Assembly (NCBI GenBank): GCA_963734705.1
Contig: CAVTII010000015.1
Location: forward strand, 400,778-464,777
Direction of reading: 5' to 3'
Length of the DNA stretch: 64,000 nucleotides
Source: an uncultured Acidobacteriota bacterium
GTDB taxonomy: Bacteria; Acidobacteriota; Terriglobia; Acidiferrales; UBA7541
The position numbers and the translations under genes are program-made. The notes under the pieces were generated by a model. The model was not told the origin of the DNA. It was given only the letters and a program-made list of their open reading frames with translations, and did no database searches. Below, piece by piece: positions 11,803-23,617 of this stretch. Positions within the stretch are counted from its first letter, which is position 1, and each line of letters begins with the position of its first letter.

Positions 11803-11828
11803 GGCCGATCTGAAGATCGGCCACTACA
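11803..11828 (+). repeat. REP family a (GGCCGATCTGAAGATCGGCC + ACTACA)
   Basis: 9-bp stem and CTACA tail, just beyond the 3' end of the RAYT gene. Confidence 0.85.
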
Positions 11829-11861
11829 CAAGGCAAGAGGCGTGTGCGCATAGAAGGTTTG

Positions 11862-11886
11862 TGTAGTGGCCAGTCTTTAGACTGGC
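11862..11886 (-). repeat. inverted-orientation REP (TGTAG + TGGCCAGTC-TTTA-GACTGGC)
   Basis: This is the only copy I found with GTAG 5' of the hairpin on the + strand. It overlaps the RAYT stop codon. CCACTACACAA (11821) and TTGTGTAGTGG (11858) form an inverted pair. Confidence 0.65.
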
Positions 11887-12398
11887 GGGGTCGACCTCCA
11901 AACTGGAAAAAATTGTTGGCCGGTTCTCGATTTCTTGATCCACTCGATTGTCTGAGATCCGGAAAACGGATAATCCTCCGGGCGCGTGCAGAGTTGCTTG
12001 CGAACCGGGTTGGCCCAGATGTAGCAAGCGACGCCCTCAATTTCATCTCCTTTCCGCAGGATGTGATCGTAAAAGCTCATTTCCCATAGACGGCGGTTGC
12101 TTTCTTTTTTGAAATCGTAGGCCGTGCGCAGTTTGAACACCCGCACGAGCTCGAAGAGATTCGAGGTGGGCTGGGTTCCATGGGCGAGGAAATGCAGGTG
12201 GTCTGGCATGGCGGAATAGGCATGGAGAAGGAAGAACCGCTTGGCGGCGCACTCACAGAGAGTTGAAAGGACGCGTCTTGCCGTCGGAGGATTTTCGAGA
12301 TAGGGCGAGCGTCGATCACAACAGATAGTTACGAAACGAGCCTTTGTGCCCACGTAGCTCAGAAGTGGGAGGCGGATCGCTTTTCGGTGCACCGGCAT
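11877..12398 (-). CDS. REP-associated tyrosine transposase (RAYT, IS200/IS605 Y1 transposase-like)
   Basis: 173 aa. HUH motif in AMPDHLHFLAHG and catalytic-Tyr region GVACYIWANPVRKQL. The gene is flanked by REP hairpins. Confidence 0.8.
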   Translation of the reverse strand: MPVHRKAIRLPLLSYVGTKARFVTICCDRRSPYLENPPTARRVLSTLCECAAKRFFLLHAYSAMPDHLHFLAHGTQPTSNLFELVRVFKLRTAYDFKKESNRRLWEMSFYDHILRKGDEIEGVACYIWANPVRKQLCTRPEDYPFSGSQTIEWIKKSRTGQQFFPVWRSTPPV

Positions 12399-19095: not shown

Positions 19096-19121
19096 GGCCG
19101 ACTTAAAAGTCGGCCAGTACA
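19096..19121 (+). repeat. REP family a (GGCCGACTTAAAAGTCGGCC + AGTACA)
   Basis: Hairpin plus tail, read directly from the sequence. Confidence 0.8.
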
Positions 19122-19152: not shown

Positions 19153-19178
19153 GGCCCGCCACGGTCGGCGGGCCCTAC
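19153..19178 (+). repeat. REP family d (GGCCCGCC-ACGGTC-GGCGGGCC + CTAC)
   Basis: Identical to the copy at 48026..48051. Confidence 0.8.
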
Positions 19179-19210
19179 GTGGATGTGGTTTGGGACTTGG
19201 AATCGAAGAG

Positions 19211-19234
19211 GCTGGCATGAAAGCCAGCGCTACA
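19211..19234 (+). repeat. REP family c (GCTGGC-ATGAAA-GCCAGC + GCTACA)
   Basis: Copies lie at 36903, 37805 and 38750. Confidence 0.8.
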
Positions 19235-19358
19235 TTACGTCGGATTGAGCGTCGGCCGGCGCTGGATGGTGGCGGAGTGGGCTTCGGACTTGGGTGAAAG
19301 GGGTGTGTTAGAATGGGGGTTTAATGAGAGAGAGGAATTTGTGGTGAGCGAGACGGGG

Positions 19359-20522
19359 ATGGCGGAATTTCCAATTATCGAGAACACGAAGTTTGAGCCG
19401 GAGGATGAGTATATTCCGGTGCCGCACGTGGAGCCTGGGCCTCCTGCGTGGATGGACGGGAGCCTGCGGATCGGCATACATACTTCGATTTCTGGGAGTT
19501 ATCTGAACGCGCTGGAATCGGCGAAGAAGCTGGGGGCGAACGCGCTGCAGATTTTTTCGGCGAGCCCGCGGATGTGGCAGACAGCGAACGTGCGGATTCC
19601 AGAGTCGGATGTGAAGGCGTTTCGGGCGCGGCGGGAAGAGTTGGGGCTGGGTCCGCTGGTGATTCACGCGAATTATCTGATCAATCTGGCGGCGGGACAG
19701 CCGATGCTGCGGACGCGGTCGATCCAGGCGTTTCATGAAGAGTTGGTGCGCGGGCGGGAACTGGGCGCGGACTTTGTGGTGGTGCATCCGGGGGCGCGCG
19801 GAGAGTCGACCATCGAGCAGGCGATTTCGACGATTGTGGACAGCGTGAAGCAGGCGGCGCGGCGCGTGCCGCTGGGGAAGATGCGGATTTTGATTGAGAA
19901 CACCGCGGGGATGGGGACGGCGGTGGGGTCGCGGCTGGAAGAGGTGGCGGCGATTTTGTACGAATTGAATCGCGGCCAAGGGACGGCGGAAGGGGCAGCA
20001 CAACAGAATTCTACGGAAAACCGACCTGAAGGTCGGCCACTACAATACGCGGCTTGTTTGGACACGGCGCATTTGTTTGCGGCGGGGTATGACATCAAGA
20101 GCGAGGCGGGGTTCGAGCAGACTCTGGAGACGATTGACCGGATATTGGGATTGGAGAATGTACCGGTGTTCCACGTGAACGATTCGAAGATTCCGCTGGG
20201 TGGGCGCGTGGATCGTCACGAGAATATTGGGGATGGAAAGATCGGCGCGGAGGCGTTTGCGCGGATCTTGCGGGCGAAGCGACTGGGGAGCGCGGGGCCG
20301 GAGGGATTGGCGGGTCGGGCGTTCTTGCTGGAGACGCCGATTGATGATCCGGGCGACGACCGGAAGAATGTGGCGAAATTGTGGGCACTGGCGGGCCTGG
20401 AAGGGCCGGAGGCGGAGAAGGGATATTCGATGATGACGCCGGGGCTGAAGAAGATGATTGCGAAGGGGAAGAAGGCGAGTGCGCGGCATTTGCCGGCGGC
20501 GAAGAGTAAAAAGAAGAAGTAA
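19359..20522 (+). CDS. nfo: deoxyribonuclease IV (endonuclease IV) with internal repeat-derived insertion and Lys-rich tail
   Basis: Motifs: IGIHTSISGS, LQIFSASPRMW, VIHANYLINL, VVVHPG, ILIENTAG, CLDTAHLFAAGYD, VFHVNDS, DRHENIGDG. The start is uncertain (19359 or 19452). Confidence 0.85.
   Translation: MAEFPIIENTKFEPEDEYIPVPHVEPGPPAWMDGSLRIGIHTSISGSYLNALESAKKLGANALQIFSASPRMWQTANVRIPESDVKAFRARREELGLGPLVIHANYLINLAAGQPMLRTRSIQAFHEELVRGRELGADFVVVHPGARGESTIEQAISTIVDSVKQAARRVPLGKMRILIENTAGMGTAVGSRLEEVAAILYELNRGQGTAEGAAQQNSTENRPEGRPLQYAACLDTAHLFAAGYDIKSEAGFEQTLETIDRILGLENVPVFHVNDSKIPLGGRVDRHENIGDGKIGAEAFARILRAKRLGSAGPEGLAGRAFLLETPIDDPGDDRKNVAKLWALAGLEGPEAEKGYSMMTPGLKKMIAKGKKASARHLPAAKSKKKK
20021..20044 (+). 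repeat. REP family a copy inside the nfo coding sequence
   Basis: CCGACCTGAAGGTCGGCCACTACA is read in frame as RPEGRPLQY. Confidence 0.8.
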
Positions 20523-20770: not shown

Positions 20771-23617
20771 GTGGGGGACTACAAGCCGCAGGAGATTGAG
20801 GCGAAGTGGCAGAAGCGGTGGGAAGAGAACCGCGTATTTGAGGCGGAAGCGGAAGTGGGGGAGCGGCAGCCTGCGGCTGGTGCCGGGGAGAGTGCGGACA
20901 AGATTTCGGAGAAGACTGCGGAGAAGAGGTCGGAGGAGCCCGGTTCGAAAGGCGAACCTGGGGCTCAGGCTGGCCGGCCCTTCGTAGCTCAGGGTAAACA
21001 AGATGCAGGCGCTACCAAGAGGAAATATTATGTGCTGGAGATGCTGCCGTATCCTTCGGGGACGCTGCATATGGGGCACATGCGCAACTACACAATTGGG
21101 GACGTGGTTGCGCGGGTAAAGAGAATGCGCGGGTACAACGTGCTGCACCCGATGGGGTGGGACGCGTTTGGCCTGCCGGCAGAAAATGCGGCGATCAAGA
21201 ACCACACGCATCCGCGTGTGTGGACCAATAAAAACATTGCGGAATTTCAGAGGGTGCTGCGGCGCTTCGGGTTCAGTTATGACTGGCGGCGGGAAATTTC
21301 CACGTGCGAGCCGGAATATTACCGGTGGAACCAATGGTTTTTCCTGCGCATGCTGGAGCGGGGGATTGCGTACAAGAAAAAGAGCCGGGTGAACTGGTGT
21401 CCGAAATGCTGCACGGTGCTGGCGAACGAGCAGGTGGTGAACGGGGGATATTGCTGGCGGCATGAAGATACGCGCGTGGAAGCGCGGGAGATTGAGCAGT
21501 GGTTTTTGAAGATCACGGCGTATGCGGAGCAGTTGCTGGAGGATCTGAAGCAGTTGGAGGGTGCGTGGCCGGATCGCGTGATCGCGATGCAGAGGAATTG
21601 GATTGGGAAGTCGGTGGGGGCGAAGGTTTGGTTTGCGATAGAAGGGGAAAAGAGTTTCATCACAGAGGACACGGAGGGCACAGAGAAGGAAGGGAAGAGG
21701 CGGATTGAGATTTTTACTACGCGGATTGACACGATTTATGGGGCTAGCGCGATTATTTTGGCGCCGAATCATCCGATGGTGGTGGGGTTGGTGGGGGCCG
21801 CAGTGGCGGATCCGGAGGCCGACCTGAAGGTCGGCCACTACACTTCGGAGGGGCGAGCTGCGAAGTTGGGGGCGATGAAGGCGTCTTCGGTTAAGGCGGA
21901 GGATATTGCTACTGCGGAGAAGGATGGGTTTTTTACGGGGCGGTATGCGATCAATCCGTTTAGTCGGGAGCGGGTGCCCATTTGGGTGGGAAATTTTGTG
22001 CTGATGGAGTATGGGACCGGGGCGATTATGGCGGTGCCGGCGCATGATGAGCGGGATAACGAGTTTGCGGTGAATTTTGGGTTGCGGATTCCGGTGGTGG
22101 TGGCAGAAGAGAAGAACAGAAAACCTAACGCAGAGACGCTGAGGGCACAGAGTTCCGCGGAGGAAGAAACCCCAAGAGCACAGGAAGGAGTGCCTGTGCC
22201 ACATTTGTTTACGGAGTATGGGTATAGCGTGAATTCGGGTAAGTATTCGGGGTTGCGGTCGGAAGAGGCGATTGAGCGGATGGCGGCGGATGGGGAGGCC
22301 GGCGGATTTGGGAAGAAGGAGACGATTTTTCGTCTGCGGGATTGGGGAATTTCGCGGCAAAGATATTGGGGCACGCCGATCCCGGTGATTTATTGCGACA
22401 AGGATGGGATGGTGCCGGTGCCGGATGACCAGTTGCCCGTGGTGCTGCCGGCGAATCCGAAGTTGACGGGGGAAGGGCAGTCTCCGCTGGCAACGGATCC
22501 GGACTTTGTGAATGTGAAATGCCCGAAGTGCGGCGGGCCGGCGCGGCGCGATGCGGATACGATGGACACGTTTGTGGATTCGTCGTGGTATTTCTACCGG
22601 TACACGGATGCGAAAAACGATCGGGCGCCGTTTGATCCGGCGAAAGCGGGATATTGGTTTCCGATTGACCAGTATATCGGCGGGATCACGCACGCGATTC
22701 TGCACCTGCTCTATTCGAGGTTCTGGTGCAAAGTGATGCGAGATCTGGGATTGGTGAAGCACGACGAGCCGATTGCGCGGCTGTTTACGCAGGGAATGGT
22801 GCAAAAGGGCGGCGTGGCGATGTCGAAATCGCGCGGGAATGTGGTGGGCGCGGAAGAGATGGCGGAGAAGTATGGGGCGGATACGGGGAGAATTTATACA
22901 CTGTTTGCGGCGCCGCCGGAGAAGGATCTGGAGTGGAGCGAAGAGAGTATTGAGGGTGCGTGGAGGTTTTTGAATCGGGTATATCGAGTTATCGACAAGC
23001 ATGCGGGCTCCGCGAGAGAAGTGGCGAGTGGCGAGTGGCGGGTGGCGAGTGAAGAGAAAAAGGATAACGCAGAGACGCTGAGCGCGCAGAGGTTCGCAGA
23101 GAAAGAGAAGTGGACGGAGAAGGAGAAGGGGTTGCTGCGGAAGGCGCACCAGACTTTGCGGAGGGTGACGCAGGATTTTGAGGGGCGGTGGCATTTTAAT
23201 TCGGCGATTGCGCAGATTATGGAATTGGTGAATGCGATTTATGCGGCGGAGCCGCTGGAAGAGGGCGTGCGGGCGGTGGTACGGAAGGAAGTGCTGGAGT
23301 TGGTGACGCTGATGCTGGCGCCGATGACGCCGCATCTGGCGGAAGAGTTGTGGGAGAAGCTGGGGCATGCGAATGGGTTGTGGACCGTGGGATGGCCGGA
23401 GTTTAATGCGGATTTGGCGAAACAGGATGAGGTGGAAATTCCGGTGCAGGTGAATGGAAAGGTGCGGGCGCGGCTGACGGTGCCGGCGGGGTCGGGGCAG
23501 GATGTGGTGATGGAGAAGGCGATGGCGGATGCGGTGGTGAAGGGGTATTTGGCGGGGAAGACGGTGCGGAAGGTGATTTTTGTGGGGGATAAGATGTTGA
23601 ATTTGGTGGTGGGGTAG
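20771..23617 (+). CDS. leuS: leucine--tRNA ligase
   Basis: Motifs: [47 protein letters not shown], the KMSKS motif as VAMSKSRGN, and the editing (CP1) domain. GTG start. It contains several repeat-derived in-frame segments. Confidence 0.95.
20968..21016 (+). repeat. composite repeat ...CCCTTCGTAGCTCAGGGTAAACAAGATGCAGGCGCTACC inside leuS
   Basis: The same unit occurs intergenically at 28383..28425, 29812..29855 and 41475..41521. Confidence 0.8.
21817..21842 (+). repeat. REP family a copy inside leuS
   Basis: GGCCGACCTGAAGGTCGGCCACTACA is read as ADLKVGHYT. Confidence 0.85.
22178..22202 (+). repeat. REP-like hairpin (GCACAGG-AAGGAGT-GCCTGTGC + CAC) inside leuS
   Basis: Same as 5153. It is preceded by ACCCCAAGA and a CACAGAG module, as in the intergenic composites. 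Confidence 0.8.

Follow-up and report, generated by a model that had tools for sequence, protein, structure and literature searches.

Repetitive extragenic palindromes (REPs) carrying the GTAG head, the feature that defines the elements associated with REP-associated tyrosine transposases (RAYTs), are mostly intergenic (PMC3733652). Di Nocera, De Gregorio and Rocco (2013, BMC Genomics 14:522; PMC3733652) described GTAG and CGTC REPs that lie inside genes for known proteins, where dimers encode 20-30 residues and clusters up to 82, many of the host genes being repair genes and some encoding tRNA synthetases. An earlier precedent of in-frame palindromic repeats is provided by the Rickettsia palindromic elements (RPE; Ogata et al. 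2000, as cited in PMC3733652), and REPIN/RAYT systems have been described in Pseudomonas and Enterobacteria (Bertels and Rainey 2011, PMC3116915). Here, we analysed a repeat within the endonuclease IV gene, nfo, of an uncultured soil acidobacterium, using a window of 64,000 nucleotides from contig CAVTII010000015.1 of a 5.58 Mb genome, which has one gene for this DNA-repair enzyme. In our assessment, the segment at 19968-20045 is very likely selfish DNA, made up of repeats that entered the gene and are now translated with it; the protein would tolerate the segment, at a site that is unstable over evolution.

The nfo coding sequence (endonuclease IV, or deoxyribonuclease IV) occupies 19359..20522 on the + strand, with an uncertain start (ATG at 19359 is likely and GTG at 19344 possible) in a frame that is open from 19245 to 20522 and encodes 387-425 aa. 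The frame matches Pfam AP_endonuc_2 (PF01261; 1.2e-38, 133.7 bits against a cut-off of 31.1) and NCBIfam TIGR00587 (209.2 bits against 129.65), the latter match being broken in two at residue 203/204. Similarly, phmmer aligns PDB Nfo chains to the protein with E values of 2e-45 to 1e-32 and places a gap exactly over the insert, and Foldseek recovers the Nfo TIM-barrel fold (4hno, 2x7v, 8rly and 1qtw; E 1e-22 to 6e-21, target-normalised TM 0.88-0.90). The trinuclear metal ligands of E. coli Nfo, which we take to be H69, H109, E145, D179, H182, H216, D229, H231 and E261 (1QTW numbering), correspond, according to the phmmer alignment to PDB Nfo chains, to H103, H143, E180, D235, H238, H272, D285, H287 and E325, and all 9 are invariant across 58 orthologues. 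Two of them, Asp235 and His238 (numbered in the 387-aa protein), lie at the strand end encoded by the C-L-D-T-A-H codons at 20055..20072 (+), which align with CIDTCH in the solved Nfo structures. Outside the insert, pN/pS of the gene is 0.14. The protein also has an N-terminal extension of ~35 residues (MAEFPIIENTKFEPEDEYIP..., window 19359-19460) and a lysine-rich C-terminal tail of ~60 residues (window 20380-20519), both absent from solved Nfo structures, modelled with low confidence and conserved across orthologues, with many invariant columns.

The sequence-only reading of this DNA had allowed for nfo being a pseudogene backed by an intact second copy elsewhere. A protein search of the whole genome returned a single match, in an open frame. 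A pseudogene is thus rejected for nfo, which is single-copy and in which none of the nine metal ligands has been lost. An artefact, that is, an assembly error at the repeat or a dead nfo gene, is barely credible on several further grounds. REPs are known to confuse assemblers, and the sequence of the closest GTDB species representative (L061, CAWGRE010000018.1) has a 1-nt frameshift ~10 nt before the insert (GCGATTCTTGTATGAA, against GCGATTTTGTACGAA in the source genome). However, the closest relative, L034, carries the insert peptide of L061 in an intact frame, so that the shift in L061 is probably a read error. Moreover, REP units occupy the same site in independent assemblies (JGI, ENA, NCBI and Logan samples), the source frame is open with all catalytic residues present and no second nfo to take over, and the low pN/pS of the gene speaks against a dead copy.

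The insert itself is delimited by the alignment of 120 close homologues of Nfo and by the DNA of the orthologous sites. Between the anchors EEVAAIL and CLDTAH there are 32 aa in the source protein and exactly 10 aa in each of the 67 orthologues that lack the insert, so the net gain is 22 codons (66 nt). Thus, the insertion of roughly 25 residues that had been read from the sequence is real, if smaller than estimated, and it lies, as claimed, just N-terminal to the metal-binding CxDTxH segment. The REP-derived segment (19968..20045, +) reads NRGQGTAEGAAQQNSTENRPEGRPLQ. Its 3′ part is an intact REP unit, CCGACCTGAAGGTCGGCCACTACA at 20021-20044, consisting of the stem CCGACC (20021-20026), the loop TGAA (20027-20030), the stem GGTCGG (20031-20036) and the tail CCACTACA (20037-20044), all on the + strand. 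The window codons here are GAA AAC CGA CCT GAA GGT CGG CCA CTA CAA TAC GCG GCT TGT TTG GAC ACG GCG CAT, the unit being read in frame as N-R-P-E-G-R-P-L-Q-Y. Two of its three + strand frames are open; the third reads CCG ACC TGA. The hairpin of 6 bp with the TGAA loop folds at -6.1 kcal/mol (z = -2.8), and the unit is an exact copy of family-a (61 copies in the genome) from which the outer two stem pairs of the 8-bp family consensus have been lost, which bears out the in-frame REP with its CTACA tail that had been proposed. The proposed + orientation also stands: the hairpin followed by CTACA on the coding strand is the reverse complement of a canonical GTAG-headed REP, with the tail CCACTACA reading TGTAGTGG on the - strand. 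Chance resemblance to a REP was considered and ruled out, the expected number of matches in shuffles being 0.

The 5′ part of the segment, GGGACGGCGGAAGGGGCAGCACAACAG at 19980..20006 (+), is probably a decayed first REP unit. In L034, which is 92-95% identical, the nfo site holds two intact REPs, GGCCGACC-TGAA-GGTCGGCC-AGTACA followed by GGCCGA-TCTGAAGT-TCGGCC-ACTACA, and it is the positional alignment of the 5′ stretch with the intact unit GGCCGACCTGAAGGTCGGCCAGTACAC of L034 that suggests the assignment. A hand count gives 13 matches over the 27 bases, and no hairpin is left (the fold is at 0 kcal/mol, z = +1.0). The attribution of about 50 nt upstream of the intact unit to the insert is therefore upheld by alignment with an intact REP of L034, heavily diverged as this stretch is. 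Because the REP tail, CGG CCA CTA CAA, overlies native R-x-L-x codons, the exact indel borders are not fixable; the tail shares only 6-7 of 12-15 bases with the native CGG GAT TTG CAA. Comparison of empty and filled nfo sites as DNA yielded no convincing target motif or clean indel borders, and the GTAG present in one empty site is on the wrong strand.

The repeat belongs to a large and diverse genomic population. When up to 3 mismatches are allowed, the window contains 4 copies of the 22-mer core, for which 100 shuffles give an expectation of 0.00; with up to 2 mismatches, the 24-mer that represents family-a is present 61 times in the genome and its reversed control 0 times. Genome-wide, (C)CTAC(A) or CAGTACA follows many GC-rich hairpins of unrelated sequence, whose stems measure 6-11 bp and whose loops measure 3-8 nt; CTAC follows 525 hairpins, compared with 185 for GTAG as the wrong-side control. 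A census of high-confidence REPs, defined by a perfect stem of at least 6 bp, the presence of the tail and at least 3 related copies, identified 399 elements, of which 257 are intergenic, 60 lie at ORF edges and 82 fall in stop-to-stop ORFs. Coding signal extends to both sides of 8 of the 399, including those in nfo and leuS and a tandem pair in an ORF of contig 6, and this count is a lower bound, given that the ORF calls are crude and only perfect stems were admitted. The contig 6 pair (C6:39330-39396, -) consists of two REPs of different stem types in frame in a 519-codon ORF, each translated, one of them as GEDARLGRRPLQEGA, with the same frame relative to the hairpin as in nfo. Three further REPs, of three stem types (19096-19121, 19153-19178 and 19210-19234, +), are intergenic and occupy the 200-nt gap upstream of nfo, each consisting of a hairpin and then (C/G)TAC, in the orientation of the nfo and leuS copies.

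A candidate mobilising enzyme is encoded 8 kb upstream of the nfo REP. The RAYT gene at 11877..12398 (-), with a product of 173 aa, scores 91.1 bits against NCBIfam NF047646 (REP_Tyr_transpos; cut-off 80) and includes one of the three Y1-transposase matches in the genome (Pfam Y1_Tnp, C15:412843-413118). Two related REPs in opposite orientations, GGCCGATCTGAAGATCGGCCACTACA at 11803-11828 and TGTAGTGGCCAGTCTTTAGACTGGC at 11862-11886, lie at its 3′ end (11803..11886), and the RAYT gene with its two flanking REPs constitutes a REPtron layout. Judged from the sequence, this RAYT may mobilise the REP superfamily that is found in nfo. The nfo repeat combines the features of GTAG-type REPs, namely, a palindromic stem-loop, a GTAG foot, a high copy number with mostly intergenic locations, and a REP-flanked RAYT.

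The same repeat is also present in the gene next door. In leuS (window 20771-23617), a REP with an 8-bp stem (GGCCGACCTGAAGGTCGGCCACTACA, 21817..21842, +) contains the 22-mer of nfo, in frame, at 21821-21842, and folds at -10.1 kcal/mol (z = -4.9); its translation, A-D-L-K-V-G-H-Y, uses the other of the two open frames. The earlier mention of a second, independent housekeeping gene hosting an in-frame REP is thus substantiated, with a different reading frame in the two genes. At this site, some LeuS orthologues are without an insert, and others have the same REP, decayed forms of it (EAGQKSGHY, EAERKIGHY) or REPs of another type (AGIKASAT in L050, AAGLKSGH in L053). The occurrence of different REP types by lineage, as with ADLKVGHY and AGIKASAT, indicates that repeated hits do occur in this group, and the leuS site looks like a recurrent REP landing site. 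The leuS region of L034 (4344-7209) is annotated as three successive genes, of 296, 522 and 160 aa, as would result from frameshifts, or from errors in the assembly, in a leuS that is laden with REPs.

Presence or absence of the insert in relatives and metagenomes, including ~60 Acidoferrales genomes, was examined together with an alignment of orthologues, as the sequence-only reading had put forward. Across ~150 orthologues from Acidoferrales-type metagenomes, the nfo site holds 0, 1, 2 or ~5 units, and the insert is absent from 67 of the 120 close homologues. One unit corresponds to 17-24 residues between the anchors, two units to 27-37 and about five to 68. Every net insert length is a multiple of 3, but a fixed unit of 33 nt, considered initially, was dropped, the net inserts measuring 33 and 66 but also 21, 27, 42, 51, 81 and 174 nt; the spacing of intergenic tandem REPs is 33-42 nt. 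The longest insert, with about five units and 58 extra residues, is in L035, which belongs to a 7-member clade with the source genome and L034; its units 3 and 4 resemble a local direct duplication, and in this clade the hairpin of either unit is retained in some relatives and lost in others. Several records labelled Baltobacteraceae, Verrucomicrobiia or Dongiaceae (L036, L045, L055) also contain acidobacterial nfo-leuS blocks that are near-identical; these are probably mis-binned contigs or mislabelled bins.

In different lineages, the identical nfo register is occupied by different stem types: CCGACC/GGTCGG, translated as RPEGRPLQ; GGCCGA/TCGGCC, as RSEVRPLQ; and CGGGTC/GACCCG, as GSKDPPLR. 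All three also exist as multi-copy families at other places in the genomes. Family-a is most abundant, with 23-96 copies, where nfo itself contains an intact unit of this family, compared with 0-13 copies in the same-genus genomes without the insert. REP abundance alone is not predictive of the insert, however, given that three genomes with 21-27 family-a copies lack it. An insert common to the whole genus is rejected: all 21 same-genus species representatives with a readable nfo site are without it, and these contain 0-13 family-a REPs against 61 in the source genome. A deeper clade of ~30 proteins has a single unit, NRGGGSDRTDDRPLQV, whose DNA resembles, by eye, a decayed CCGGTC-TAAA-GACCGG REP; this older one-unit insert shows no hairpin beyond that expected from shuffles, and the genomes of the clade contain 0-46 copies of the TAAA family. 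The earlier expectation that orthologues from genomes without REPs should lack the insert is upheld by the 21 same-genus representatives. One member of the deeper clade, G049, contains neither of the searched REP types and keeps the older one-unit insert, which there persists as a fossil.

How often the site has been hit is a separate question. In a single-gene Nfo tree built with the insert columns removed, the insert state needs at least 13 changes, at least 5-6 of them on well-supported branches, and the AU test rules out monophyly of the insert-bearing sequences (delta lnL 344, p = 0.001). Under one alternative, a single ancient REP insertion in nfo was followed by precise losses, slippage duplication and gene conversion or recombination, with no further transposition at this site. 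We consider this scenario unlikely, although far from negligible. All inserts begin with L-N-R/K and end with (R)P-L-Q, in the same codons, and the shared L-N-R prefix would favour a common origin; the apparent local duplication of units 3 and 4 in L035 points the same way. Soil Acidobacteria recombine, and exchange from one lineage to another could give the appearance of repeated gain and loss. Conversely, the 67 insert-free sites have, without exception, exactly 10 residues and never the REP-derived proline, and so look ancestral rather than repeatedly restored; this invariably exact empty site would favour repeated gain. The number of well-supported state changes and the different REP types per lineage at the neighbouring LeuS site also weigh against a single insertion. 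Nevertheless, the shared prefix and suffix are as compatible with a single old insertion, later remodelled and in places lost, as with repeated hits, so that the direction of change can be read either way. A more specific proposition is that the nfo loop and the LeuS site are sequence- or structure-specific RAYT landing pads, subject to repeated insertion and precise excision. We give this only a slim chance; if it were true, nfo and leuS would represent a natural, phylogenetically replicated record of REP transposition. Equally speculative is an interplay of REP hairpins with DNA repair, which might underlie the preponderance of repair genes among the hosts of intragenic REPs.

Where the insert lies in the protein bears on why it is tolerated. 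As had been suggested from the sequence, the structure was modelled to see whether the insert forms a loop. The AlphaFold model of Nfo (pTM 0.79) places the insert, aa 204-229, between the helix 193-205 and the strand 230-235 that carries CLDTAH, with pLDDT below 50 for residues 209-226, and the insert is thus predicted to be a disordered loop. The strand ends at Asp235, and His238 follows; from the order of the secondary-structure elements and the TIM-barrel topology, the insert would enter at the N-terminal end of the strand, that is, on the face opposite the trinuclear metal site.

The rates of change within the inserts are relevant to a second alternative, namely, that the insert is kept for a useful hairpin or peptide and that the lineage-specific stems are compensatory changes under selection. 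In such a case, a folded segment of the nfo mRNA might hold up ribosomes or shield the transcript, or the acidic/Arg-Pro loop could provide a new contact. Up to 4 of the 6 stem positions vary, and yet pairing stays complete and the register is unchanged, and the older one-unit insert has a pN/pS of 0.28, compared with 0.18 for the rest of the gene, its peptide being conserved through synonymous change, which indicates purifying selection. Furthermore, many intragenic REPs are in repair genes (Di Nocera et al., PMC3733652). We nonetheless find a useful insert very unlikely. Given that each stem variant is a multi-copy genomic family, the differences between stems are explained more simply by replacement or a new insertion than by compensatory evolution. 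The hairpin is gone from the whole older clade and from unit 1 of the source nfo, more than half of the close orthologues have no insert at all, and the loop is modelled as disordered. Finally, the young two-unit insert, with a pN/pS of 0.60 against 0.14 for the rest of the gene, evolves ~4 times faster by this measure. All these pN/pS values are from 5-6 sequences with nearly saturated synonymous sites.

We therefore return to translated selfish DNA as the preferred reading and propose the following scenario. The insert comprises two tandem GTAG-type REP units, the 3′ one an exact family copy and the 5′ one probably decayed. The units would have been placed by the genome's own RAYT through the single-strand 'peel and paste' chemistry or, alternatively, might have arrived by recombination between REP copies. 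Selection would let pass only those insertions that keep the frame, contain no stop codon and fall in a loop that tolerates them, and the nfo insert would survive because its length is a multiple of three, its frame is stop-free and it lies in the loop that leads into the CLDTAH strand. Once established, the insert would be a neutral or nearly neutral passenger: the Nfo enzyme that carries it is very probably still active, and there is no need to ascribe a function to the insert itself. Units would subsequently be added, replaced by other stem variants, decayed or lost, and an old unit without its hairpin may live on as ordinary coding sequence, as seems to be the case in the deeper clade. Both mobilisation of the nfo units by the RAYT and tolerance by the enzyme are what we infer from these patterns.

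The results present a well-replicated case of short selfish repeats joining essential proteins, in an uncultured soil phylum. Every stage can be followed among the orthologues: a site still empty, recent hairpins with perfect stems, tandem growth to about five units, changes of stem type, and a peptide that outlasts its hairpin. The series shows proteins gaining loops from mobile DNA, serves as a warning to annotators and aligners with regard to REP-coded inserts, and offers a site for studies of the target choice of a RAYT. Current understanding of REP and Nfo function is unaffected.

Like the RPE of Rickettsia, which lie in frame within genes that stay functional, the nfo units are in-frame palindromic repeats. 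RPE are thought to sit on protein surfaces, and RPE-1 is ~100-150 nt long; the nfo units, at ~27-42 nt, are shorter. Unlike RPE, which are found in a reduced obligate intracellular genome and for which no cognate RAYT has been shown, the repeats analysed here flank a RAYT gene. In this respect, the locus resembles the REPIN/RAYT systems (PMC3116915), which likewise comprise a genomic REP population and a RAYT gene flanked by the REPs that it presumably moves. By contrast, REPINs are inverted doublets and essentially extragenic, whereas the nfo units are direct tandem singlets in one orientation and are translated. A close match is provided by the REPs of Di Nocera et al. (PMC3733652), which are also short, GC-rich, GTAG-tagged hairpins associated with RAYTs, some of them in frame. 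The host genes correspond as well, a repair gene and a tRNA synthetase gene, nfo and leuS, being involved here, and the 22-residue insert is a dimer of a size comparable to those described. A search of the supplementary tables of that study for 'endonuclease' and 'leucyl' gave no match, and the host phylum here, Acidobacteriota (of the Acidoferrales type), is not represented by its intragenic examples. What the present case adds to that study is a dense orthologue series with 0 to ~5 units, stem swaps in one register and hairpin decay. Intragenic REPs as such are already known; the novelty lies in the phylum, the gene that hosts them here and the fine resolution of the evolutionary series.
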